Virus record (IMG/VR): IMGVR_UViG_2851982317_000003
Reading direction: 5' to 3' (one strand)
Length of the DNA: 49,084 nt
Source: a virus
Lineage: Duplodnaviria; Heunggongvirae; Uroviricota; Caudoviricetes
The notes beneath the pieces are model-generated. The model ran no database searches. It worked only from the letters and a program-made list of their open reading frames with translations, and was not told the origin of the DNA. A program made the position numbers and the translations under genes. Position 1 is the first letter of the stretch; each line of letters begins with the position of its first letter. This document shows positions 8,591-49,084 of the stretch, piece by piece.

Positions 8591-8645
8591 GGTGATGCTG
8601 CCAACTTACTGATTTAGTGTATGATGGTGTTTTTGAGGTGCTCCA

Positions 8646-8921
8646 GTGGCTTCCATTTCCATCAGATGTCCTTCCTGCTCCGCTACTGAAGGCGTGGTGC
8701 GTAACGGCAAAAGCACTGCCGGACATCAGCGCTATCTCTGCTCTCACTGCCGTAAAACATGGCAACTGCAGTTCACTTACACCGCTTCTCAACCCGGTAC
8801 GCACCAGAAAATCATTGATATGGCCATGAATGGCGTTGGATGCCGGGCAACAGCCCGCATTATGGGCATTGGCCTCAACACGATTTTACGTCACTTAAAA
8901 AACTCAGGCCGCAGTCGGTAA
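8646..8921 (+). CDS. insA: IS1 InsA
   Basis: 91-aa [46 protein letters not shown]... Confidence 0.95.
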
Positions 8922-9343
8922 CCTCGCGCATACAGCCGGGCAGTGACGTCATCGTCTGCGCGGAAATGGACGAACAGTGGGGCTATGTCGGGGCTAAATC
9001 GCGCCAGCGCTGGCTGTTTTACGCGTATGACAGGCTCCGGAAGACGGTTGTTGCGCACGTATTCGGTGAACGCACTATGGCGACGCTGGGGCGTCTTATG
9101 AGCCTGCTGTCACCCTTTGACGTGGTGATATGGATGACGGATGGCTGGCCGCTGTATGAATCCCGCCTGAAGGGAAAGCTGCACGTAATCAGCAAGCGAT
9201 ATACGCAGCGAATTGAGCGGCATAACCTGAATCTGAGGCAGCACCTGGCACGGCTGGGACGGAAGTCGCTGTCGTTCTCAAAATCGGTGGAGCTGCATGA
9301 CAAAGTCATCGGGCATTATCTGAACATAAAACACTATCAATAA
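8840..9343 (+). CDS. insB: IS1 InsB (made as an InsAB' fusion by frameshifting)
   Basis: 167-aa ORF in the -1 frame overlapping insA. Confidence 0.9.
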
Positions 9344-9358
9344 GTTGGAGTCATTACC

Positions 9359-17385: not shown

Positions 17386-18468
17386 TTAGAACTGATACAC
17401 CAGACCTACAGCGACGATGTCGTCGGTATCAATACCAGCTGTTTTGGTAAACTTACTATCGTCAATTAAGTTGATTTTGTAATCAACAAAAGTGGACATG
17501 TTTTTATTAAAGTAGTAAGTAGCACCGACATCGACATACTTGACTAAGTCTCGGTCACCATGAACACCAAGGTCTTTACCTTTTGACTGAAGGTAAGCAA
17601 CAGATGGTCGCAGACCGAAGTCAAACTGATATTGTGCTACTGCTTCAAAGTTTTGTGCTTTGTTTGCAATATGGTTATTACCAAAAACGGTCATATTCTG
17701 AGTTTCAGAATATGTGGTAGCCAGATAGATATTGTTCGCATCATATTTCAGGCCTGCAGCCCATACTTCCGCATTTTTGCCGGAGGCATTGAATTTGCTC
17801 TTACCATAGGCGACCTGACCGTCAGTGCGATCTGATTTAGCATAGGTTGCACCCACGCCGAATCCTTCATACTCATAAGTAGTGGAGAAACCGAAACCAT
17901 CACCATTGGCTTCAGTTACGTCAGTGCGGTCATTTTTACCCTGATACTGAGCAGCAAAGTTCAGGCCATCGACCAGACCAAAGAAGTCGTTGTTACGATA
18001 GGTTGCAACACCAGTGGTGCGACCAGTCATGAACACATCTGTTTGGGTCCAGGTATCGCCACCGAATTCTGGCAGAACGTCAGTCCACGCACCGATGTCG
18101 TATGCTACACCGTAGTTACGGCCGTAATCGATTGAGCCGTAGTCACCGAATTTCAGGCCTGCAAATGCAAGACGGGTTTTGTCTTTGGAGGAACCTTGAG
18201 ATTCAGCGCGGTTGCCTTTGAATTCATATTCCCACTGACCGAAACCAGTCAGTTGATCGTTGATTTGGGTTTCACCTTTGAAGCCAAGACGGGCATAAGT
18301 AGTATCACCATCATCTGCATCATTAGAGGAGAAGTAGTGCTTAGCATTAACTTTCCCGTACAGATCCAGCTTGTTACTGTCTTTATTATAAATTTCAGCT
18401 GCCTGAGCAGACATCGCCATCAGTACTGATGCAGCTACAGCAGAAATTGCCACTGTTAATTTTTTCAT
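17386..18468 (-). CDS. nmpC: OmpC-family trimeric porin, phage-borne (Lc / NmpC-like lysogenic-conversion gene)
   Basis: 360-aa ORF with signal peptide ([23 protein letters not shown]), AEIYNKD...C-terminal VYQF; between Q and holin in opposite orientation. Confidence 0.9.
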
Positions 18469-21680: not shown

Positions 21681-21748
21681 TGGCAAACGCAAAACGTAAC
21701 CGGCTCATTTAAACCGTCTGGTCTGTTTCCTCCGGCTCTACAAAAATA

Positions 21749-22426
21749 ATGTCCATCATTTTTAATGGACACTATCGTATGAAACACCGGACCTGGATCA
21801 CTGAAGCTTTACGTCTTCACTTTGAAGAACATTTACCCCGGGTTGTGGCCGGGCGTCGCCTGGGTGTACCAAAATCAACAGTTTGTAGTATGTTCGTGCG
21901 CTTTCGGAGAGCTGGCCTTTCGTGGCCTTTGCCCGCAGGCATGTCGGAGCAGGAACTTGATGCCTGCCTTTACGGACAATTTTCCACGGTACCAGTCGTA
22001 CGTCCTGAAAGCACCGTTATATCCGAAGCCCCCGTGGTAAAAAAACGTCCCCGGCGGCCCAACTTCCCTTATGAGTTTAAAATCGCCTTAGTGGAGCAGT
22101 CACTGCAGCCCGGAGCCTGTGTGGCGCAGATCGCCCGGGAAAACGGAATCAACGATAACCTGCTCTTCAACTGGCGCCATCAATACCGGAAAGGTGGCCT
22201 GCTGCCTTCCGGAAAAAATATGCCGGCACTGCTTCCCGTGACGTTAACGCCGGAGCCGGATAATAAAATCCCGGCCCCCGCACAGGAACCAGAGCAGATA
22301 AATACACCGTCCGACAGTCTGTGTTGTGAGCTGGTTCTGCCGGCCGGAACTCTCAGGCTTAAAGGTAAACTGACGCCGGCGTTATTACAGACACTTATCC
22401 GCGAAATAAAAGGGAGCAGCCACTGA
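21749..22426 (+). CDS. IS66-family accessory protein TnpA (orfA); start uncertain
   Basis: Contains the PRRPNFPYEFKIALVEQSLQPGACVAQIARENGINDNLLFNWRHQYRKG motif. Confidence 0.7.
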   Translation: MSIIFNGHYRMKHRTWITEALRLHFEEHLPRVVAGRRLGVPKSTVCSMFVRFRRAGLSWPLPAGMSEQELDACLYGQFSTVPVVRPESTVISEAPVVKKRPRRPNFPYEFKIALVEQSLQPGACVAQIARENGINDNLLFNWRHQYRKGGLLPSGKNMPALLPVTLTPEPDNKIPAPAQEPEQINTPSDSLCCELVLPAGTLRLKGKLTPALLQTLIREIKGSSH

Positions 22427-22773
22427 TGATATCTCTCCCTGCAGGTTCGCGTATCTGGCTGGTTGCAGGTATCACCGATATGCGAAATGGCTTTAACGGC
22501 CTGGCATCAAAAGTTCAGAACGTCCTGAAGGATGACCCGTTCTCCGGACACCTGTTCATCTTCCGCGGACGCCGGGGTGACCAGATAAAAGTGTTGTGGG
22601 CTGACAGTGACGGACTGTGCCTCTTCACCAAACGCCTGGAGCGGGGCCGCTTCGTCTGGCCAGTCACCCGTGACGGCAAGGTGCACCTTACTCCGGCTCA
22701 GTTATCCATGCTTCTTGAAGGTATCAACTGGAAGCACCCGAAACGAACGGAACGCGCTGGAATCCGCATATAA
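22426..22773 (+). CDS. IS66-family TnpB (orfB)
   Basis: 115-aa ORF MISLPAGSRIWLVAGITDMRNGFNGLASKV..., start overlapping the orfA stop. Confidence 0.85.
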   Translation: MISLPAGSRIWLVAGITDMRNGFNGLASKVQNVLKDDPFSGHLFIFRGRRGDQIKVLWADSDGLCLFTKRLERGRFVWPVTRDGKVHLTPAQLSMLLEGINWKHPKRTERAGIRI

Positions 22774-22792
22774 CCCGTTGTAAAGTGAGGAT

Positions 22793-24364
22793 ATGGACAC
22801 CTCACTTGCTCATGAGAACGCCCGCCTGCGGGCACTGTTGCAGACGCAACAGGACACCATCCGCCAGATGGCTGAATACAACCGCCTGCTCTCACAGCGG
22901 GTGGCGGCTTATGCTTCCGAAATCAACCGGCTGAAGGCGCTGGTTGCGAAACTGCAACGTATGCAGTTCGGTAAAAGCTCAGAAAAACTTCGTGCAAAAA
23001 CCGAACGGCAGATACAGGAAGCACAGGAGCGAATCAGCGCACTTCAGGAAGAAATGGCGGAAACGCTGGGTGAGCAATATGACCCGGTACTGCCATCCGC
23101 CCTGCGCCAGTCTTCAGCCCGTAAACCGTTACCGGCCTCACTTCCCCGTGAAACCCGGGTTATCCGGCCGGAAGAGGAATGCTGTCCTGCCTGTGGTGGT
23201 GAACTCAGTTCTCTGGGATGTGATGTGTCAGAGCAACTGGAGCTTATCAGCAGCGCCTTTAAGGTTATTGAAACACAACGTCCGAAACAGGCCTGTTGCC
23301 GGTGCGACCATATCGTGCAGGCACCAGTACCTTCAAAACCCATTGCACGCAGTTATGCCGGAGCGGGGCTTCTGGCCCATGTTGTCACCGGGAAATATGC
23401 AGACCATCTGCCGTTATACCGCCAGTCAGAAATATACCGTCGTCAGGGAGTGGAGCTGAGCCGTGCCACACTGGGGCGCTGGACAGGTGCTGTTGCTGAA
23501 CTGCTGGAGCCGCTGTATGACGTCCTGCGCCAGTATGTGCTGATGCCCGGTAAAGTCCATGCTGATGATATCCCCGTCCCGGTCCAGGAGCCGGGCAGCG
23601 GTAAAACCCGGACAGCCCGGCTGTGGGTCTACGTCCGTGATGACCGTAACGCCGGTTCACAGATGCCCCCGGCGGTCTGGTTCGCGTACAGTCCGGACCG
23701 GAAAGGTATCCATCCACAAAATCACCTGGCCGGTTACAGCGGTGTGCTTCAGGCCGATGCTTACGGTGGTTACCGGGCGTTATACGAATCCGGCAGAATA
23801 ACGGAAGCCGCGTGTATGGCTCATGCCCGGAGAAAAATCCACGATGTGCATGCAAGAGCGCCCACCTACATCACCACGGAAGCCCTGCAGCGTATCGGTG
23901 AACTGTATGCCATCGAGGCAGAGGTCCGGGGCTGTTCAGCAGAACAGCGTCTGGCGGCAAGAAAAGCCAGAGCCGCGCCACTGATGCAGTCACTGTATGA
24001 CTGGATACAGCAACAGATGAAAACACTGTCGCGTCACTCAGATACGGCAAAAGCGTTCGCATACCTGCTGAAACAGTGGGATGCACTGAACGTGTACTGC
24101 AGTAATGGCTGGGTGGAAATCGACAACAACATCGCAGAGAACGCCTTACGGGGAGTGGCCGTAGGCCGGAAAAACTGGATGTTCGCGGGTTCCGACAGCG
24201 GTGGTGAACATGCGGCGGTGTTGTACTCGCTGATCGGCACATGCCGTCTGAACAATGTGGAGCCAGAAAAGTGGCTGCGTTACGTCATTGAACATATCCA
24301 GGACTGGCCGGCAAACCGGGTACGCGATCTGTTGCCCTGGAAAGTTGATCTGAGCTCTCAGTAA
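22793..24364 (+). CDS. IS66-family transposase TnpC (leucine zipper, zinc finger, DDE domain)
   Basis: 523-aa ORF with CPACGG...CxxC zinc-finger and DDE region. Confidence 0.9.
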
Positions 24365-24807
24365 ATATCAATACGGTTCTGACGAGTCGCTTACGACTGA
24401 TGGAAAGACATCCTAATTTCAGCCAAACATTGAAGGAGTTGTTATGTCAGCAGAAGGTTTCAATAACCCATCAAAATTCCGGGATGAGTGGGATAGCAGC
24501 GTAAAGAGTAAGTGATGCCATCACAAAAGCCATTCCCTACAGAGTGGCTTTGATAATGGCTTATACCCTACACGGGATAACTTAACTGATATCCCTTTTA
24601 AAGGATAAAGGTATTCAAGCCTGACACATCATGCGCTGTATCGTCGCCGTATTCCCGTATTAACAGAGACCGTAGCCCGACGGGGAACTCCTTCTGCGCG
24701 AGTGTGCGGGAATAATCAAAAACGATGCACACCGGGGTTACCGGGTACACATATTTCATCATGCCAGCGAGTCCGGTTCTGGCACGGAAGAAACCGGACG
24801 TTATGAT

Positions 24808-26443: not shown

Positions 26444-30124
<3,681 letters not shown>

Positions 30125-30144
<20 letters not shown>

Positions 30145-31443
30145 TCTCCCGCATATTGCCAGCATGGCCTTTAATGAGCCGCTGATGCTTGAACCCGCCT
30201 ATGCGCGGGTTTTCTTTTGTGCGCTTGCAGGCCAGCTTGGGATCAGCCGCCTGACGGATGCGGTGTCCGGCGACAGCCTGACTGCCCAGGAGGCACTCGC
30301 GACGCTGGCATTATCCGGTGATGATGACGGACCACGACAGGCCCGCAGTTATCAGGTCATGAACGGCATCGCCGTGCTGCCGGTGTCCGGCACGCTGGTC
30401 AGCCGGACGCGGGCGCTGCAGCCGTACTCGGGATGACCGGTTACAACGGCATTATCGCCCGTCTGCAACAGGCTGCCAGCGACCCGATGGTGGACGGCAT
30501 TCTGCTCGATATGGACACGCCAGGCGGAATGGTGGCGGGGGCATTTGACTGCGCTGACATCATCGCCCGTGTGCGAGACATAAAACCGGTATGGGCGCTG
30601 GCCAACGACATGAACTGCAGTGCAGGTCAGCTGCTTGCCAGTGCCGCCTCCCGGCGTCTGGTCACGCAGACCGCCCGGACAGGCTCCATCGGCGTCATGA
30701 TGGCTCACAGTAATTACGGTGCTGCCCTGGAGAAACAGGGTGTGGAAATCACGCTGATTTACAGCGGCAGCCATAAGGTGGATGGCAATCCCTACAGCCA
30801 TCTTCCGGATGACGTCCGGGAGACACTGCAGTCCCGGATGGACGCAACCCGCCAGATGTTTGCGCAGAAGGTGTCGGCATATACCGGCCTGTCTGTGCAG
30901 GCTGTGCTGGATACCGAGGCTGCAGTGTACAGCGGTCAGGAGGCCATTGATGCCGGACTGGCTGATGAACTTGTTAACAGCACCGATGCGATCACCGTCA
31001 TGCGTGATGCACTGGATGCGCGTAAATCCCGTCTCTCAGGAGGGCGAATGACCAAAGAGACTCAATCAACAACTGTTTCAGCCACTGCTTCGCAGACTGA
31101 CGTTACTGACGTGGTGCCAGCGACGGAGGGCGAAAACGCCAGCGCGGCGCAGCCGGACGTGAACGCGCAGATCACCGCTGCGGTTGCGGCAGAAAACAGC
31201 CGCATTATGGGGATCCTCAACTGTGAGGAGGCTCACGGACGCGAAGAACAGGCCCGCGTGCTGGCAGAAACCCCCGGTATGACCGTGGAAACGGCCCGCC
31301 GCATTCTGGCAGCTGCACCACAGAGTGCACAGGCGCGCAGTGACACTGCGCTGGATCGTCTGATGCAGGGGGCACCGGCACCGCTGGCTGCAGGTAACCC
31401 GGCATCTGATGCCGTTAACGATTTGCTGAACACACCAGTGTAA
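30125..31443 (+). pseudogene. C: Head protease/scaffold gene C with an apparent 1-bp deletion at about 30431-30436 (GTG start)
   Basis: N-terminal 103 codons end PYSG-stop; the rest (MTGYNGIIARLQQ...) continues in the +2 frame from an overlapping ATG; span is 1319 nt against the recalled 1320. Confidence 0.7.
30838..31443 (+). CDS. nu3: Scaffolding protein Nu3 (in-frame internal start within the C-terminal part of C)
   Basis: ATG at 30838 in the frame of the C-terminal C reading, ending at the C stop. Confidence 0.75.
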   Translation: MDATRQMFAQKVSAYTGLSVQAVLDTEAAVYSGQEAIDAGLADELVNSTDAITVMRDALDARKSRLSGGRMTKETQSTTVSATASQTDVTDVVPATEGENASAAQPDVNAQITAAVAAENSRIMGILNCEEAHGREEQARVLAETPGMTVETARRILAAAPQSAQARSDTALDRLMQGAPAPLAAGNPASDAVNDLLNTPV

Positions 31444-36252: not shown

Positions 36253-38824
36253 ACCGGTAGGCGATCTGGTCGTTGATTTGAGTCTGGATGCGGCCAGATT
36301 TGACGAGCAGATGGCCAGAGTCAGGCGTCATTTTTCCGGTACGGAAAGTGATGCGAAAAAAACAGCGGCAGTCGTTGAACAGTCAATGAACCGGCAGGCG
36401 CTGGCTGCACAGAAAGCGGGGATTTCCGTCGGACAGTATAAAGCCGCCATGCGTATGCTGCCTGCACAGTTCACCGACGTGGCCACGCAGCTTGCAGGCG
36501 GGCAAAGCCCGTGGCTGATCCTGCTGCAACAGGGGGGTCAGGTTAAGGACTCCTTCGGCGGGATGATCCCCATGTTCAGGGGGCTTGCCGGTGCGATCAC
36601 CCTGCCGATGGTGGGGGCCACCTCGCTGGCGGTGGCGACCGGTGCGCTGGCGTATGCCTGGTATCAGGGCAACTCAACCCTGTCCGATTTCAACAAAACG
36701 CTGGTCCTTTCCGGCAATCAGGCGGGACTGACGGCAGATCGTATGCTGGTCCTGTCCAGAGCCGGGCAGGCGGCAGGGCTGACGTTTAACCAGACCAGCG
36801 AGTCACTGACGGCGCTGGTGAATGCCGGTGTGCGTGGTGGTGAGCAGTTTGAGGCGATCAGCCAGAGTGTGGCGCGTTTCTCCTCTGCATCCGGCGTGGA
36901 GGTGGACAAGGTCGCTGAAGCCTTCGGGAAGCTGACCACAGACCCGACGTCGGGACTGACAGCGATGGCACGTCAGTTCCATAACGTGACGGCGGAGCAG
37001 ATTGCGTATGTTGCTCAGTTGCAGCGTTCCGGAGATGAAGCCGGCGCATTGCAGGCGGCGAGCGAGGCCGCAACGAAAGGGTTTGATGACCAGACCCGCC
37101 GCCTGAAAGAGAACATGGGCACGCTGGAGACCTGGGCAGACAGGACAGCACGGGCATTCAAATCCATGTGGGATTCGGTGCTGGATATTGGTCGCCCGGA
37201 CACTGCCCAGGGAATGCTGGAGAAAGCAGAAAAGGCTTTTGATGAGGCGGACAAAAAATGGCAGTGGTATCAGAGCCGGAGCCACCGGCGCGGTAAAACC
37301 TCAGCATTTCTTGCCAATCTCCGGGGAGCATGGGAGGACAGAGCGAATGCGCAACTTGGACTTTCAGCCGCCACGTTGCAGGCCGATCTTGAAAAGGCCA
37401 GAGAGATGGCAGCAAAGGACTGGGCCGAGTCTGAGGCATCACGGCTGAAATATACCGAAGAGGCGCAGAAGGCTTACGAACGGCTGCAGACGCCGCTGGA
37501 GAAATATACCGCCCGTCAGGAAGAACTGAACAAGGCACTGAAGGACGGGAAAATCCTGCAGGCGGATTACAACACGCTGATGGCGGCGGCGAAAAAGGAT
37601 TATGAAGCGACGCTGAAAAAGCCGAAACAGTCCGGCGTGAAGGTGTCTGCGGGCGATCGTCAGGAAGACAGTGCTCATGCTGCCCTGCTGACGCTTCAGG
37701 CAGAACTCCGGACGCTGGAGAAGCATGCCGGAGCAAATGAGAAAATCAGCCAGCAGCGCCGGGATTTGTGGAAGGCGGAGAGTCAGTTCGCGGTACTGGA
37801 GGAGGCGGCGCAACGTCGCCAGCTGTCCGCACAGGAGAAATCCCTGCTGGCGCATAAAGATGAGACGCTGGAGTACAAACGCCAGCTGGCTGCACTTGGC
37901 GACAAGGTTACGTATCAGGAGCGCCTGAACGCGCTGGCGCAGCAGGCGGATAAATTCGCACAGCAGCAACGGGCAAAACGGGCCGCTATTGATGCGAAAA
38001 GCCGGGGGCTGACTGACCGGCAGGCAGAACGGGAAGCCACGGAACAGCGCCTGAAGGAACAGTATGGCGATAATCCGCTGGCGCTGAATAACGTCATGTC
38101 AGAGCAGAAAAAGACCTGGGCGGCTGAAGACCAGCTTCGCGGGAGCTGGATGGCAGGCCTCAAGTCCGGCTGGAGTGAGTGGGAAGAGAGCGCCACGGAC
38201 AGTATGTCGCAGGTTAAAAGTGCAGCCACGCAGACCTTTGATGGTATTGCGCAGAATATGGCGGCGATGCTGACCGGCAGTGAACAGAACTGGCGCAGCT
38301 TCACCCGCTCCGTGCTGTCCATGATGACAGAAATTCTGCTTAAGCAGGCAATGGTGGGGATTGTCGGGAGTATCGGCAGCGCCATTGGCGGGGCTGTTGG
38401 TGGCGGCGCATCAGCGTCAGGCGGTACAGCCATTCAGGCAGCTGCGGCGAAATTCCATTTTGCGACCGGAGGATTTACGGGAACCGGCGGCAAATATGAG
38501 CCAGCGGGGATTGTTCACCGTGGTGAATTTGTCTTCACTAAGGAGGCAACCAGCCGGATTGGCGTGGGGAATCTCTACCGGCTGATGCGCGGCTATGCCA
38601 CCGGCGGTTATGTCGGTACACCGGGCAGCATGGCAGACAGCCGGTCGCAGGCGTCCGGGACGTTTGAGCAGAATAACCATGTGGTGATTAACAACGACGG
38701 CACGAACGGGCAGATAGGTCCGGCTGCTCTGAAGGCGGTGTATGACATGGCCCGCAAGGGTGCCCGTGATGAAATTCAGACACAGATGCGTGATGGTGGC
38801 CTGTTCTCCGGAGGTGGACGATGA
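36245..38824 (+). CDS. H: Tail tape-measure protein H
   Basis: 859-aa ORF MAEPVGDLVVDLSLDAARFDEQMARVRRHFSG... Confidence 0.97.
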   Translation: MAEPVGDLVVDLSLDAARFDEQMARVRRHFSGTESDAKKTAAVVEQSMNRQALAAQKAGISVGQYKAAMRMLPAQFTDVATQLAGGQSPWLILLQQGGQVKDSFGGMIPMFRGLAGAITLPMVGATSLAVATGALAYAWYQGNSTLSDFNKTLVLSGNQAGLTADRMLVLSRAGQAAGLTFNQTSESLTALVNAGVRGGEQFEAISQSVARFSSASGVEVDKVAEAFGKLTTDPTSGLTAMARQFHNVTAEQIAYVAQLQRSGDEAGALQAASEAATKGFDDQTRRLKENMGTLETWADRTARAFKSMWDSVLDIGRPDTAQGMLEKAEKAFDEADKKWQWYQSRSHRRGKTSAFLANLRGAWEDRANAQLGLSAATLQADLEKAREMAAKDWAESEASRLKYTEEAQKAYERLQTPLEKYTARQEELNKALKDGKILQADYNTLMAAAKKDYEATLKKPKQSGVKVSAGDRQEDSAHAALLTLQAELRTLEKHAGANEKISQQRRDLWKAESQFAVLEEAAQRRQLSAQEKSLLAHKDETLEYKRQLAALGDKVTYQERLNALAQQADKFAQQQRAKRAAIDAKSRGLTDRQAEREATEQRLKEQYGDNPLALNNVMSEQKKTWAAEDQLRGSWMAGLKSGWSEWEESATDSMSQVKSAATQTFDGIAQNMAAMLTGSEQNWRSFTRSVLSMMTEILLKQAMVGIVGSIGSAIGGAVGGGASASGGTAIQAAAAKFHFATGGFTGTGGKYEPAGIVHRGEFVFTKEATSRIGVGNLYRLMRGYATGGYVGTPGSMADSRSQASGTFEQNNHVVINNDGTNGQIGPAALKAVYDMARKGARDEIQTQMRDGGLFSGGGR

Positions 38825-41225: not shown

Positions 41226-44200
41226 ATGGGTAAAGGCAGCAGTAAGGGGCATACTCCGCGCGAAGCGAAGGACAACCTGAAGTCCACGCAGTTGCTGAGT
41301 GTGATCGATGCCATCAGCGAAGGGCCGGTTGAAGGTCCGGTGGATGGATTAAAAAGCGTGCTGCTGAACAGTACGCCAGTGCTGGACAGTGAGGGGAATA
41401 CCAATATCTCCGGCGTCACGGTGGTGTTCCGGGCCGGTGAGCAGGAGCAGACACCGCCGGAGGGATTTGAATCCTCCGGCTCCGAGACGGTGCTGGGTAC
41501 GGAAGTGAAATACGACACGCCGATCACCCGGACCATCACGTCGGCAAACATTGACCGACTGCGTTTTACCTTCGGCGTGCAGGCACTGGTGGAAACCACC
41601 TCAAAGGGGGACAGGAATCCGTCGGAAGTCCGCCTGCTGGTTCAGATCCAGCGTAATGGTGGCTGGGTGACGGAAAAAGACATCACCATTAAGGGCAAAA
41701 CCACCTCGCAGTATCTGGCCTCGGTGGTGGTGGGTAACCTGCCGCCGCGCCCGTTCAATATCCGGATGCGCAGGATGACGCCGGACAGCACCACAGACCA
41801 GCTGCAGAACAAAACGCTCTGGTCGTCATACACCGAAATCATCGATGTGAAACAGGGCTACCCGAACACGGCACTGGTCGGCGTGCAGGTGGATTCGGAG
41901 CAGTTCGGCAGCCAGCAGGTGAGCCGTAATTATCATCTTCGCGGGCGCATTCTGCAGGTGCCGTCGAACTATAACCCGCAGACGCGGCAATACAGCGGTA
42001 TCTGGGACGGAACGTTTAAACCGGCATACAGCAACAACATGGCCTGGTGTCTGTGGGATATGCTGACCCATCCGCGCTACGGCATGGGGAAACGTCTTGG
42101 TGCGGCGGATGTGGATAAATGGGCGCTGTATGTCATCGGCCAGTACTGCGACCAGTCAGTGCCGGACGGCTTTGGCGGCACGGAGCCGCGCATCACCTGT
42201 AATGCGTACCTGACCACACAACGTAAGGCGTGGGATGTGCTCAGTGATTTCTGCTCGGCGATGCGCTGTATGCCGGTATGGAACGGGCAGACGCTGACGT
42301 TCGTGCAGGACCGACCATCAGATAAGGTGTGGACCTATAACCGCAGTAATGTGGTGATGCCGGATGATGGCGCGCCGTTCCGCTACAGCTTCAGCGCCCT
42401 GAAGGACCGCCATAATGCCGTTGAGGTGAACTGGATTGACCCGAATAACGGCTGGGAGACGGCGACAGAGCTTGTGGAGGACACGCAGGCCATTGCCCGT
42501 TACGGTCGTAACGTCACGAAGATGGATGCCTTTGGCTGTACCAGCCGGGGGCAGGCACACCGCGCCGGGCTATGGCTGATTAAAACAGAACTGCTGGAAA
42601 CGCAGACCGTGGACTTCAGCGTGGGCGCAGAAGGGCTTCGCCATGTGCCGGGCGATGTTATTGAAATCTGTGATGATGACTATGCCGGTATCAGCATCGG
42701 CGGGCGCGTGCTGGCGGTAAACAGCCAGACCCGGACGCTGACGCTCGACCGTGAAATCACGCTGCCATCCTCCGGTACCACGCTGATAAGCCTGGTTGAC
42801 GGAAGTGGCAATCCGGTCAGCGTGGAGGTTCAGTCCGTCACCGACGGCGTGAAGGTGAAAGTGAGCCGTGTTCCTGACGGCGTTGCTGAATACAGCGTGT
42901 GGGGGCTGAAGCTGCCGACGCTGCGCCAGCGCCTGTTCCGCTGCGTGAGTATCCGTGAGAACGACGACGGCACGTATGCCATCACCGCCGTGCAGCATGT
43001 ACCGGAAAAAGAAGCCATCGTGGATAACGGGGCGCACTTTGACGGCGACCAGAGCGGCACGGTGAATGGTGTCACGCCGCCAGCGGTGCAGCACCTGACT
43101 GCCGAAGTCACCGCAGACAGCGGGGAATATCAGGTGCTGGCGCGCTGGGACACGCCGAAGGTGGTGAAGGGCGTGAGCTTCCTGCTCCGTCTGACCGTAA
43201 CAGCGGATGACGGCAGTGAGCGGCTGGTCAGCACGGCCCGGACGACGGAAACCACATACCGCTTCACGCAGCTGGCGCCAGGAAACTACAGGCTGACAGT
43301 CCGGGCGGCAAATGCCTGGGGACAGCAGGGCGATCCTGCATCGGTATCGTTCCGGATTGCCGCACCGGCAGCACCGTCGAGGATTGAGCTGACGCCGGGC
43401 TATTTTCAGATAACCGCCACGCCGCATCTTGCCGTTTATGACCCGACGGTACAGTTTGAGTTCTGGTTCTCGGAAAAGCGGATTACCGATATCAGGCAGG
43501 TTGAAACCACAGCACGCTATCTTGGCACGGCGCTGTACTGGATAGCCGCCAGTATCAATATCAAACCGGGCCATGATTATTACTTTTATATCCGCAGTGT
43601 GAACACCGTTGGCAAATCGGCATTCGTGGAGGCTGTTGGTCAGCCGAGTGATGATGCATCCGGTTATCTGGATTTTTTCAAAGGCGAGATAGGGAAAACC
43701 CATCTGGCTCAGGAGCTGTGGACGCAGATTGATAACGGTCAGCTTGCGCCTGACCTGGCTGAAATCAGGACGTCCATTACGGATGTCAGCAATGAAATCA
43801 CGCAGACCGTCAATAAGAAACTGGAAGACCAGAGTGCGGCAATTCAGCAGATACAGAAGGTTCAGGTTGATACAAATAATAACCTGAACAGCATGTGGGC
43901 TGTGAAGCTGCAGCAGATGCAGGACGGACGCCTTTATATCGCGGGTATTGGTGCCGGTATTGAGAACACCCCTGACGGCATGCAGAGTCAGGTGCTGCTG
44001 GCGGCAGACAGGATTGCGATGATTAATCCTGCGAATGGCAACACAAAGCCGATGTTTGTTGGGCAGGGCGATCAGATATTCATGAATGACGTGTTCCTGA
44101 AACGCCTGACGGCTCCCACCATTACCAGCGGCGGTAATCCTCCGGTATTTTCCCTGACACCGGACGGGCGGCTGACGGCGAAAAATGCCGATATCAGCGG

Positions 44201-44705
44201 TAACGTGAATGCGAACTCCGGGACGCTCAACAACGTCACGATTAACGAGAACTGTCGGGTTCTGGGAAAACTGTCCGCCAACCAGATTGAAGGCGATCTC
44301 GTTAAAACAGTGGGCAAAGCTTTCCCCCGGGACTCCCGTGCACCGGAACGGTGGCCATCAGGGACCATCACCGTCAGGGTTTATGACGATCAGCCGTTTG
44401 ACCGGCAGATTGTTATTCCGGCGGTGGCATTCAGCGGCGCTAAACATGAGCGGGAGAATAACGATATTTATTCGTCATGCCGCCTGATAGTACGGAAAAA
44501 CGGTGCTGAAATTTATAACCGTACCGCGCTGGATAATACGCTGATTTACAGTGGTGTTATTGATATGCCTGCCGGTCACGGTCACATGACACTGGAGTTT
44601 TCGGTGTCAGCATGGCTGGTAAATAACTGGTATCCCACAGCAAGTATCAGCGATTTGCTGGTTGTGGTGATGAAGAAAGCCACTGCAGGCATCACGATTA
44701 GCTGA
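41226..44705 (+). CDS. J: Central tail fibre / host-specificity protein J
   Basis: 1159-aa ORF ([41 protein letters not shown]...). Confidence 0.95.
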
Positions 44706-44772: not shown

Positions 44773-45372
44773 ATGCGTAAATTATGTGCTGTTATTTTGT
44801 CCGCAGCCATCTGTCTGTCCGTATCCGGTGCGCCTGCATGGGCGTCTGAACATCAGGCCACACTGAGCGCAGGGTATCTTCATGCCCGTACGAACGCTCC
44901 CGGCAGCGATAATCTGAACGGGATTAACGTGAAATACCGTTATGAGTTTACGGACACGCTGGGGCTGATTACGTCATTCAGTTATGCCAACGCTGAAGAT
45001 GAGCAAAAAACGCATTACAGCGATACCCGCTGGCATGAAGATTCCGTGTGTAACCGCTGGTTCAGCGTGATGGTGGGGCCGTCTGTGCGCGTGAATGAAT
45101 GGTTCAGCGCGTATGCGATGGCGGGTATGGCTTACAGCCGTGTGTCGACTTTCTCCGGGGATTATCTCCGCGTAACTGACAACAAGGGGAAAACGCACGA
45201 TGTGCTGACCGGAAGTGATGACGATCGCCACAGCAACACGTCTCTGGCGTGGGGAGCTGGCGTGCAGTTTAACCCGACCGAATCCGTGGCCATTGATATT
45301 GCTTATGAAGGCTCCGGCAGTGGCGACTGGCGCACTGACGGTTTCATCGTGGGTGTCGGTTATAAATTCTGA
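44773..45372 (+). CDS. lom: Lom outer-membrane protein (Ail/Lom family beta-barrel)
   Basis: 199-aa ORF with signal peptide and terminal GYKF. Confidence 0.9.
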
Positions 45373-45398: not shown

Positions 45399-45426
45399 AG
45401 CCCGCCGGTTCAGGCGGGCTTTTTTG
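45399..45426 (+). terminator. Intrinsic terminator after lom (AGCCCGCC-GGTTCA-GGCGGGCT + T5)
   Basis: 8-bp GC stem plus T-run. Confidence 0.6.
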
Positions 45427-45436
45427 TGGAGTGGAT

Positions 45437-47788
45437 ATGGCAGCAGTAAAAATCTCAGGTGTGCTGAAAGATGGTGCGGGAAAACCAATACAGAACTGCA
45501 CTATTCAACTGAAGGCAAAGCGTAACAGCACCACGGTACTGGTGAACACGGTGGCCTCTGAAAATCCGGATGAAGCCGGACGTTACAGCATGGATGTTGA
45601 GTATGGCCAGTACAGCGTCACCCTGCTGGTTGAAGGTTTTCCGCCTTCACATGCCGGGACCATTACCGTCTATGAAGGCTCCAGACCAGGTACGCTGAAT
45701 GATTTTCTCGGTGCCATGACGGAAGATGATGTCATGCCGGAGGCATTGCGTCGTTTTGAGGCAATGGTGGAAGAAGTGGCACGCAACGCCGAAGCCGCCT
45801 CTCAGAGCGCAGCGGCGGCAAAGAAATCCGAAACTGCAGCGGCATCATCAAAGAACGCGGCGAAAACCTCAGAAACGAATGCAGCTAATAGTGCACAGGC
45901 GGCAGCGACCTCACAGACTGCATCAGCAAACTCCGCGACAGCAGCCAAAAAATCAGAAACCAACGCGAAAAACAGCGAGACAGCCGCAAAGACGAGCGAA
46001 ACCAACGCAAAGTCCAGCCAGACGGCAGCGAAAACCAGCGAAACGAATGCCAAAGCCAGTGAAACTGCGGCAAAAAACAGCCAGGTTGCGGCAGCCGGTT
46101 CTGCGACTTCAGCAGCTGGATCAGCAACTGCTGCGGCTAACAGCCAGAAAGCTGCGAAGACGAGTGAAACTAACGCAAAGTCCAGCCAGACGGCAGCGAA
46201 GACCAGCGAAACGAATGCCAAAGCCAGCGAAACTGCGGCGAAAAACAGCCAGGATGCAGCAGCCCAAAGCGAGAGTGCCGCAGCTGGTTCTGCAAGTGCG
46301 GCGGCTTCTTCTGCCACTGCATCAGCCAACAGTCAAAAAGCAGCAAAAACCAGTGAAACCAACACAAAGGCGAGCGAGACTGCGGCGACTAACTCGGCGA
46401 AAGCATCCGCTGCAAGCCAGATGGCTGCAAAAGCAAGTGAAGACGCAGCCAGAGAGTATGCAAGCCAGGCAGCAGAGCCGTATAAATATGTCTTACAGCC
46501 ACTGCCTGATGTGTGGATACCGTTTAATGACTCGATGGATATGATTACAGGATTTGGCCCGGGATATAAAAAAATAACAGTGCGCGATGATGTGGTCACT
46601 ATACCATCCGACAAAATTGTCCCGTTTTCCCGCGCGAGTTCCGCGACCTATATCAATAAGTCCGGCGCTCTTACCATTGCAGAAATTAATGAGCCACGTT
46701 TTGAAAAAGAAGGGCTGTTAATTGAAGGGCAGAGAACAAATTACTTCACAAACTCAAACGCTCCGGAATTGTGGAATAAAAATCCAGGCCTGAAGATAAG
46801 CGAGACAAAAACCGATTCCAGGGGTTTTAAATATGCAACGTTTACCCCAGAAAAATATTTAGATAGTTCTGGCTCATATGGAATTATATCAGGGGCAGCA
46901 GCAAATAAGATAGCGGTAGTCAAAAATGATGCAGTTACAATATCCTTTAGAGCAAAAGGGGATAATGTAAGATTTGCGGCTAGATTTGATAAAGGGGATT
47001 CGCCAGTTGCTGTAGCTGCCATTTTTATTGATAGCGCCACACTAGATACATTCACGTCTGGAGCAGATGCGTCTAATATTGCTGTGAAAAATGTTGTTCG
47101 TGACGGTGAGTGGGTTGCTGTAGAGGCTGTTTATAAAGTAACAGACGACTCTACATATATTAACGGCGCCATTCTGATGTCAAACAAACTGGGTGCTAAT
47201 TTTGATAAGACTAGTTTTATGGATGTAACCACCCCTCAAATAGAGCTAGGTTCTTGCTTATCATCATTTATTGTCACACCAGGTGTTCCTGCGACAAGGG
47301 CGAGTGATATGGTTATTTTTTCAACCAGAAATAACATAAGTTCTGTCCCTTTAAGCTGTCTTGTTGAAATACATAAAAATTGGGACTCTACGCCAAATCA
47401 GGCCCCACGAATTTTAACCACTATTGGCGTGGCGACTAATGATGAACAACTGGTATTGGCTTTCAGGACGCCTACAAGTCCGGATGTAGAACCTTTACCT
47501 TATGTTCAGTTTGGAGTGAGATCTGCATATCTTAGTCCATCTGTGAAGGCCGGGCGCAAAATGATTGCTGGTTTTGTCTGTAATAGCTCGACTGAATTTC
47601 GTTGCTGTTGTAATGGTTACCTGTCACCTGTTCAGACTTCGTCATGGAAGAATACCGGAGCTGCACATGAAATACGTATTGGGGGAACTTCTGCTGGAGG
47701 AGAACGTCACTTGTTTGGTCACGTTCGTAACCTGAGAATATGGCATAAAGAATTAACTGATGCGCAAATGGGGGAGAGTATTAAATGA
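45437..47788 (+). CDS. stf: Side tail fibre Stf (lambda-like N-terminus, Ala/Ser/Thr-rich repeat shaft, divergent low-GC C-terminal domain)
   Basis: MAAVKISGVLKDGAGKPIQNCTIQLKAKRNSTTVLVNTVASENPDEAGRYSMDVEYGQYSV... is lambda Stf-like at the N-terminus. Confidence 0.85.
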   Translation: MAAVKISGVLKDGAGKPIQNCTIQLKAKRNSTTVLVNTVASENPDEAGRYSMDVEYGQYSVTLLVEGFPPSHAGTITVYEGSRPGTLNDFLGAMTEDDVMPEALRRFEAMVEEVARNAEAASQSAAAAKKSETAAASSKNAAKTSETNAANSAQAAATSQTASANSATAAKKSETNAKNSETAAKTSETNAKSSQTAAKTSETNAKASETAAKNSQVAAAGSATSAAGSATAAANSQKAAKTSETNAKSSQTAAKTSETNAKASETAAKNSQDAAAQSESAAAGSASAAASSATASANSQKAAKTSETNTKASETAATNSAKASAASQMAAKASEDAAREYASQAAEPYKYVLQPLPDVWIPFNDSMDMITGFGPGYKKITVRDDVVTIPSDKIVPFSRASSATYINKSGALTIAEINEPRFEKEGLLIEGQRTNYFTNSNAPELWNKNPGLKISETKTDSRGFKYATFTPEKYLDSSGSYGIISGAAANKIAVVKNDAVTISFRAKGDNVRFAARFDKGDSPVAVAAIFIDSATLDTFTSGADASNIAVKNVVRDGEWVAVEAVYKVTDDSTYINGAILMSNKLGANFDKTSFMDVTTPQIELGSCLSSFIVTPGVPATRASDMVIFSTRNNISSVPLSCLVEIHKNWDSTPNQAPRILTTIGVATNDEQLVLAFRTPTSPDVEPLPYVQFGVRSAYLSPSVKAGRKMIAGFVCNSSTEFRCCCNGYLSPVQTSSWKNTGAAHEIRIGGTSAGGERHLFGHVRNLRIWHKELTDAQMGESIK
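45790..46440 (+). repeat. Tandem and direct DNA repeats inside stf (about 33-bp periodicity; near-identical ~95-bp copies at about 45991-46088 and 46158-46252)
   Basis: Repeated GACGAG(C/T)GAAAC(C/T)AACGCAAAGTCCAGCCAGACGGCAGCGAA...; encodes AAKTSETNAKxS repeats. Confidence 0.85.
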
Positions 47789-48066
47789 AAGATTTAACAC
47801 TCAAATTTGCAGACAGGGCCGACTTTTCGGCCTTTATGGATAGCACGGGCTATTATGATGACGAGTCGATGCAGGATGATATTCTTATTGACGTGATAGG
47901 TAACGTGTACAAAGAAACCGGAGAACTGACTGAAGATGGCGAACCGGTGTGTGTTAAGGAAGACGGATATTTTGTAAACGTGCGCATCATTAATGATGCA
48001 AAAAAATCGTCAATATTCGATGAATACGCGGTTGTTGTTGAACATCAACTTCGTGGCTGGATGTGA
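47785..48066 (+). CDS. Small acidic hypothetical protein translationally coupled to stf (possible fibre accessory/chaperone)
   Basis: 93-aa ORF whose ATG overlaps the stf stop (ATGA). Confidence 0.45.
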   Translation: MKDLTLKFADRADFSAFMDSTGYYDDESMQDDILIDVIGNVYKETGELTEDGEPVCVKEDGYFVNVRIINDAKKSSIFDEYAVVVEHQLRGWM

Positions 48067-48075
48067 GGGAGACAA

Positions 48076-48780
48076 ATGGCTACATCGACAGTAATTCCGG
48101 GAGACATCACCACGCTGAAGGGAGATGTCAGTAAAGCGAAGGAAGATATTTCCTCAATTAACGGTAAAGTATCAACGCTTCAGACTGATATGACCAGTGC
48201 AAAGCAGGATATCAGCTCCAGATACACAAAAACTGAAGTTGATAATAAGCTGAAAAACAAAGTGGAAGTGAACGATCTGGAAAGTGGTCGTTATGGCGGA
48301 GATTTTTATCCACTGACAGGTCGTGAAGCGTTTTATTTATGGAGTTTGGCCACGACTACAGCGGCGGCAAACCTTTATCTTAATCCTGACCCTGCAATTT
48401 CGTCTGTACTGCGGTCAACATCGTCTATCCGCTATAAACATTCAGTAGAGACGATAGATTAAGAGCACGCCGATCTCATTTTCAGGATGCGCCCTGTATG
48501 GTACAGGTCACAATGCGAAAATGACAGGCGTGACTGGGGATTCTACGGATTGATTGCCGAGGAAGTAGGAGAAATTGCCCCTCAGTTTGTACACTGGCGA
48601 TCAGCTAACGAAGATGATGCACCGGAAGCTATTTCCAGCAATGGCCTTGTTGCCGAAGGTGTAATGTACGAACGTCTGGTTGTTCCACTGATTCACCATA
48701 TCCAGAAACTGACTGAAAGAGTTGATGAACTTGAGTCAGAATTGAAGTTGTTATCAACTTCCCGAAGCGATATCGGATAA
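48076..48780 (+). pseudogene. Tail-fibre-like protein with C-terminal intramolecular-chaperone (peptidase S74-like) domain, interrupted by an in-frame TAA at 48460-48462
   Basis: Track ORFs 48076-48462 and 48487-48780 share a frame; the stop falls inside the recognisable motif (SSIRYKHSVETID-stop-...GFYGLIAEEVGEIAPQFV...YERLVVPLIHHIQKL). Confidence 0.5.
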
Positions 48781-48790
48781 AGGAGGAGTA

Positions 48791-49084
48791 ATGGATATAA
48801 CACCTTTTCTTCATGCGCTTTGTGCTGTGGCTGCGCAGGTACTGATTGGTCTTTTTACCGGAAACTGGGTTTACGGGGCGATAGCCGGTTGTACGTTCTT
48901 CATTGCGCGTGAACACACCCAGGCAGAATATCGCTGGATTGAAATGTTCGGGCATGGCAAGCGAATGAATATGCCGTGGTGGGGCGGTTTTGATCCGCGT
49001 GTTTGGGATGTGGCAAGCCTGATGGATTTTGCTGTGCCGGTGGTGGCGTGTCTGCTGATCTGGCTGTTGGTTAATCGTGGGTGA
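48791..49084 (+). CDS. Hypothetical membrane protein (two or three hydrophobic segments)
   Basis: 97-aa ORF with good RBS (AAGGAGGAG); no recognisable family. Confidence 0.4.
   Translation: MDITPFLHALCAVAAQVLIGLFTGNWVYGAIAGCTFFIAREHTQAEYRWIEMFGHGKRMNMPWWGGFDPRVWDVASLMDFAVPVVACLLIWLLVNRG

Follow-up and report, generated by a model that had tools for sequence, protein, structure and literature searches.

The question raised by this locus is whether a tail fibre gene that appears to be broken by a stop codon is really broken, and what that means for the phage. The DNA analysed (49,084 nucleotides; IMG/VR virus record IMGVR_UViG_2851982317_000003; hereafter the window) represents a lambda-like prophage that occupies the attachment site of lambda, with ybhC on one side and bioA on the other. 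Its fibre block consists of four co-directional genes, namely stf (the proximal side tail fibre gene), orf93, a distal or second fibre gene for a protein of 234 amino acids, and orf97, and the third of these (48076-48780, + strand) contains an in-frame TAA at 48460-48462. A first-pass annotation made from the sequence alone, whose coordinates all proved correct, had proposed either a recently inactivated second fibre or tip protein, or a sequencing error. In this study we conclude, with high confidence, that a real and recent C-to-A nonsense mutation killed the distal fibre gene of a prophage that was already defective, and that the event is best regarded as neutral decay. The result is an ordinary pseudogene: nothing in the data points to recoding, to a functional split or to a new mechanism. 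It was moreover already known, since annotation by the Prokaryotic Genome Annotation Pipeline (PGAP) and RefSeq precedes our analysis, the gene being labelled 'tail fiber domain-containing protein, internal stop' in NZ_CP035870.1.

The interrupted gene is a single frame of 234 codons plus a terminal TAA, as had been read from the sequence, and the only internal stop is the TAA at codon 129. Four intact homologous genes of 705 nucleotides, found in Escherichia coli 118UI (WP_000235985.1), in the viable phages IdasGreatGrand and PhiR49_1, and in sister strains (WP_001735044.1), align to the window without gaps, and codon 129 is TCA (Ser129) in all four. The ancestral TCA was converted to TAA by one C-to-A transversion at 48461. 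Within the gene, this position is the sole base that differs from the intact copies of the closest sister prophages (strains 203740, F5505-C1 and 2014EL-1343-2), so that no damage other than the stop is present, in agreement with a recent inactivation. The ratio of nonsynonymous to synonymous substitution rates (dN/dS), calculated pairwise over the whole frame for the four intact genes and the window with the stop codon skipped, was 0.13-0.23 for the more diverged pairs, and 0.45 for the nearest pair, a value that rests on just five substitutions. The low dN/dS across the whole frame therefore indicates that both halves are constrained as coding sequence in the relatives. Against the PHROGs profiles, the repaired protein matched phrog_3299 (E=1.8e-139) and several tail-fibre PHROGs, among them phrog_454 (E=6.5e-33).

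The stop falls within a chaperone domain. A domain resembling peptidase S74 had been suspected at the C-terminus, and a hidden Markov model search bears this out: once the stop is masked, residues 116-172 of the joined reading, on both sides of the stop, give a match to PF13884 (Peptidase_S74) with 26.6 bits (E=7.7e-6) for a gathering score of 22 bits. The repaired allele scores 27.3 bits, with residues 116-172 corresponding to profile positions 1-57. Taken separately, the two halves remain below the threshold, the N-terminal open reading frame (ORF) giving no match and the C-terminal one 13 bits. In an alignment of 23 homologues, Ser116 and Lys121 are invariant, and a block of conserved residues extends from about residue 93 to the end. 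In characterised S74 domains, the catalytic dyad is made up of a Ser and a Lys at a distance of five residues (PMC3742443). Judging from this invariance and from the alignment of the first position of the Pfam profile to residue 116, Ser116 and Lys121, at either end of the motif S-S-I-R-Y-K (codons at 48421-48438), are predicted to be the catalytic dyad and the self-cleavage site. The premature TAA sits 13 residues past Ser116 and 8 past Lys121. It had been described as falling inside a conserved motif, which is right as regards the S74 domain and not as regards the position itself, variable in the family (S/D/N). No NCBIfam match was obtained for the fibre pseudogene, orf93 or orf97.

In its intact form, the 234-residue protein would begin with a short docking segment that is conserved, followed by a coiled coil of alpha-helices, a small tip and, at the C-terminus, the S74 domain. 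As in characterised relatives, the latter would drive folding of the trimer and then cut itself off at Ser116/Lys121, leaving a mature product of about 115 residues. Residues 1-32 (48076-48171) share 66% identity with the 346-residue second fibre of phage Tritos, with no similarity further on, and are the only part matched by phrog_4563 and phrog_19752. The Tritos second fibre has an S74 domain of its own (52.8 bits) and a distal domain of about 190 amino acids. These 32 residues, common to otherwise unrelated second fibres, form the putative docking segment. Only one solved structure, that of the chaperone end of the L-shaped tail fibre of DT57C type (8hqz), is related in sequence. An AlphaFold2 monomer of an intact homologue, whose low mean predicted local distance difference test (pLDDT) score of 56 restricts its use to secondary structure, contains helices at 11-47 and 198-233, which fit a coiled-coil shaft and a chaperone zipper, respectively. 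Its top eight Foldseek matches are the intramolecular-chaperone domains of MyRF, T5 and K1F (7dc3, 4uw8, 3gw6). The coiled-coil-like repeats noted earlier are weakly supported, by the low-confidence helix 11-47 and by sub-threshold similarities to the P22 gp26 tail needle (E=0.003) and the Lpp zipper.

Compared with known S74 proteins (K1F endosialidase, T5 L-shaped tail fibre pb1, DT57C LtfA (8hqz) and eukaryotic MyRF), the second fibre shows a Pfam match starting at the catalytic Ser, the same Ser-x4-Lys spacing, a C-terminal location of the domain and a long predicted helix after it, and its nearest neighbours in structure and sequence are all such domains. It differs in the small size of its carrier, about 115 residues when mature against 300 to more than 1000 in characterised cases, and in that the domain of the window is cut by the stop after its 13th residue.

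Several points weaken this view of the intact gene as a fibre. The Foldseek scores are weak (best E-value 2e-3, low TM-scores), the monomer models are of low confidence (mean pLDDT of 56 for the fibre and 48 for orf93), and in the BASEL phage records the 231-residue homologue is named 'putative lateral tail fiber chaperone' and not fibre. Alternatively, the protein could be a trans-acting assembly chaperone of Stf, in which case the mutation would disable Stf assembly and not take away a second fibre. The labels given to Drexlerviridae homologues, 'putative lateral tail fiber chaperone' or 'chaperone of endosialidase', fit such a role, as does a mature part of only about 115 residues without a large receptor-binding domain. 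However, S74 domains act on their own polypeptide and are then cleaved off (PMC3742443, PMC4728585), and sharing the N-terminal 32 residues with the Tritos fibre corresponds to the pattern of distal fibres that are swapped on one anchor. Furthermore, in phage 21 an Stf of this architecture is accompanied by an orf93 homologue and the 234-residue gene is absent, which shows that such an Stf does not need it. We thus consider a trans-acting chaperone unlikely, and retain a distal fibre as the most likely function of the intact gene.

The truncated product would end at residue 128. Anchor, shaft and cleavage motif would be retained, and about 105 residues, the body of the chaperone domain, would be lost. 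Self-cleavage of S74 domains requires a folded and trimerised domain, and constructs without the domain fail to trimerise (PMC3742443). We infer that the truncated product can neither trimerise nor mature, and that the gene is dead. A much less favoured explanation is that the halves are now separate functional genes, with a 97-residue chaperone made in trans from the ATG at 48487, or that the ochre codon is read through. It could draw on the docking segment, coiled coil and cleavage motif retained in the N-terminal fragment, and on automatic gene callers, which report an ORF of 97 or 76 residues 3' of the stop. Yet an AGG abuts the ATG at 48487 and no Shine-Dalgarno sequence at usable spacing is evident, and the ORF starting there lacks domain residues 116-137. 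A suppressor was considered and rejected, the window containing no tRNA gene, and because of the portal stop described below the prophage probably cannot package anyway. Moreover, the split is confined to a small clone: a 61-base query centred on the TAA matched 737 complete E. coli records, a single one of which, NZ_CP035870.1 (strain E2528-C1), was identical over the full length, the other 736 having at least one mismatch and a sense codon in place of the stop. Taken together, we judge a working split or readthrough very improbable.

A separate gene beginning at 48487 was ruled out on two grounds: no suitably spaced ribosome-binding site is evident, and the intact homologues are single ORFs that run across the position of the stop; the latter fact also shows that the two parts are not unrelated genes. 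Promoter-like and terminator-like sites were looked for on the + strand from stf to orf97 and none was found, which also disposes of an internal promoter or terminator dividing the two halves. The 97-residue ORF (48487-48780, in the same frame as 48076-48462) is best described as mechanical, and corresponds to the untranslated C-terminal rest of the S74 domain.

The stop is a real, recent and clonally inherited C-to-A transversion and not an artefact. The exact 128-residue truncated product was found on 14 contigs, and among the matches listed it occurs in six places from six samples, three of them NCBI assemblies (GCA_018884505.1, GCA_017761065.1, GCA_026423035.1) and three Logan run assemblies (ERR054682, SRR5605997, SRR11280901). 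Each of the six has the TAA and matches the window at 100% identity along 2.9-4.0 kb. In an exact-sequence look-up, the truncated protein has four NCBI protein accessions and is present on 10 contigs, while the exact ancestral Ser129 allele is present on 228 contigs, inside a 90%-identity cluster of 2928 members. The view that the gene is intact and the TAA an error of sequencing or assembly, to which the presence of the TAA in only one complete RefSeq genome and two private differences of the window from RefSeq (a deletion of 1 nt near 30432 and a base at 37987, signs of a possibly imperfect assembly) lend some colour, has next to no chance of being right, because the exact truncated product was called in at least six samples from both NCBI and Logan assemblies, has four separate protein accessions, and results from a substitution that, being common to different runs, is not a random error. 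A weak point of this argument, to be counted against it, is that the independence of the assemblies carrying the TAA was deduced from their differing accessions. The case illustrates that public data alone are enough to tell whether a stop within a conserved domain is a real mutation or an artefact.

Over about 25 kb of late genes outside the IS66 element, two positions alone, 41939 and 48461, separate the window and E2528-C1 from both full-length sisters; strain-specific differences are also present among these prophages. We assume that the substitution at 41939 is synonymous in J, since the J protein has the same accession in E2528-C1 and both sisters. Both changes are G:C-to-T:A transversions, a type associated with oxidised guanine, but with only two events this may be chance. 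The window is almost identical to NZ_CP035870.1. The two sites of difference, at which the window also departs from the sister loci that cover them, are the 1-nt deletion near 30432 and position 37987, with T in place of C. The window is therefore a different assembly or a sibling isolate relative to the E2528-C1 record. The apparent deletion splits the S49 peptidase/gpC gene into ORFs at 29978-30436 and 30433-31443. As for its use, the C-to-A change at 48461 provides a clean clonal marker for a small E. coli sublineage.

The prophage had other defects. Its portal gene (28543-30144) contains an in-frame TGA at codon 115 (28885-28887); PGAP flags the same portal gene with 'internal stop' in 203740 and F5505-C1, and no base differs across the codon between these strains and the window. 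An insertion sequence (IS) element of the IS66 family (ISCro1) lies at about 21700-24400, between the lysis and the terminase/packaging genes, and is also present in 203740 and F5505-C1. As the portal nonsense codon and the IS66 element are common to full-length sisters with an intact fibre gene, the portal defect predates the fibre stop. Very probably, the prophage had lost the ability to form particles by the time the fibre gene was inactivated. The fibre stop, having arisen in a prophage with a prior portal stop, is most simply explained as neutral decay. It carries little weight for biology at large, adding one more decay step of a cryptic prophage. The second fibre gene is probably dispensable even in a live phage, because in phage 21 the stf and orf93 homologues are followed directly by an orf97 homologue without a second fibre gene.

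Insertion sequences also distinguish the individual prophages. An ImmA/IrrE-family gene is interrupted by an IS1 (8591-9358) in the window alone and is intact in the sisters, which have instead an IS1 in a replication gene or an IS3 elsewhere. These differences indicate independent IS traffic within one prophage lineage. A porin gene annotated OmpC (17386-18468, - strand) is located between the Q antiterminator and the lysis genes.

All on the + strand, J (41226-44705) is followed by lom (44773-45372), a terminator-like hairpin (45399-45420) and stf (45437-47788), the latter being a PGAP coding sequence for 783 residues. The gene order J, lom, stf goes with an N-terminal phage_tail_N domain in Stf (PF08400, residues 3-132, E=5.3e-67). 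Residues 428-622 match the NCBIfam GTA_spike_fiber domain, and residues 715-777 give a Laminin_G_3 match below threshold (23.5 bits for a 27.6-bit cut-off). Compared with five homologues, Stf is conserved over residues 1-350, shows 16-58% identity over residues 450-750, and returns to 66-78% in the last 33 residues, which are conserved even in the T1-like phage PeterMerian. This fits the idea that the last 33 residues are a junction with the distal fibre. We infer a two-part fibre, in which a proximal Stf with a lectin-like receptor-binding domain would carry an exchangeable distal trimer anchored by its N-terminus.

Such a proximal and distal arrangement has been proposed for DT57C LtfA/LtfB (PMC4728585), and for phage IrisVonRoten a proximal Gp22 with a galectin-like domain and a distal Gp24 with a chaperone domain have been predicted (PMC11990801). 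As in these two systems, a proximal gene with a variable lectin-like domain is here followed by a distal gene, of which the short N-terminus alone is conserved among alleles and the C-terminus is an S74 domain. Unlike in these systems, a small acidic ORF stands between the fibre genes, the proximal fibre has the N-terminus of lambda Stf, and attachment of the distal fibre to Stf is presumed. The resemblance to lambda Stf/Tfa is in the position after J and lom and in the PF08400 N-terminal domain, whereas the distal half of stf is different and the window encodes no Tfa chaperone. In the matching genome, a tfa remnant follows orf97, just past the end of the window. Its position 3' of orf97 suggests that the fibre cassette replaced the lambda-type stf-tfa distal module by recombination. 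The shaft region of stf (45800-46400) contains long near-perfect repeats, with units of the KTSETNAK and SSQTAAK types, and as a result long spurious ORFs appear in other frames as well as on the opposite strand.

The 93-residue acidic ORF that had been noted after stf is indeed present (orf93, 47785-48066, + strand), with a pI of 4.17 and 21 Asp/Glu for 9 Lys/Arg residues. Its ATG (47785-47787) overlaps the stf stop codon TGA (47786-47788) as ATGA, an overlap that suggests translational coupling to stf. The protein matches phrog_1361 (E=2e-46) and phrog_18574, both of unknown function; it gave no Pfam or NCBIfam match and no match to Tfa or any other fibre-chaperone family, and the homologues recovered in a search were all named 'hypothetical protein'. 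The AlphaFold2 model mentioned above was built on a shallow alignment (85-97% identity) and is too poor for a fold search. By tblastn, members of the orf93 family are spread over 181 phage records and at least six phage groups, including lambda-like phages, T1-like Drexlerviridae, Dhillonvirus, Queuovirinae, T5-like phages and rV5-like myoviruses. Among the annotated matches listed, orf93 lies at or adjoining a lateral or side tail fibre gene, and three loci examined closely agree with this. In phage 21, the Stf shares the domain architecture described here (phage_tail_N and a sub-threshold Laminin_G_3 match). As phage 21 has stf and orf93 without a second fibre gene, orf93 appears to be a partner of the proximal fibre and not of the broken gene.

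The T1-like phage PeterMerian has the whole three-gene cassette, its three products having protein identities of 43%, 47% and 57%. From synteny and conservation patterns only, it is tentatively possible that stf, orf93 and the S74 mini-fibre constitute an uncharacterised branched side-fibre system of lambdoid, T1-, T5- and rV5-like phages, in which orf93 might serve as a non-Tfa assembly factor or connector and the 234-residue protein as a minimal exchangeable tip. No study of the stf/orf93/S74-fibre cassette was found in the literature, which offers only the general two-component fibre model. The cassette, and above all the widespread orf93 family beside lateral-fibre genes, provides a modest lead for the engineering of phage host range.

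The fibre block ends with orf97 (48791-49084, + strand), a small membrane protein gene matching phrog_1443 (E=6.7e-59). In many lambda-like phages it lies, with about 95% DNA identity, 3' of fibre modules that differ widely, and it may represent either a conserved flank for recombination or a gene for lysogenic conversion. Its homologue in phage 21 is annotated as a putative membrane protein with two transmembrane domains.

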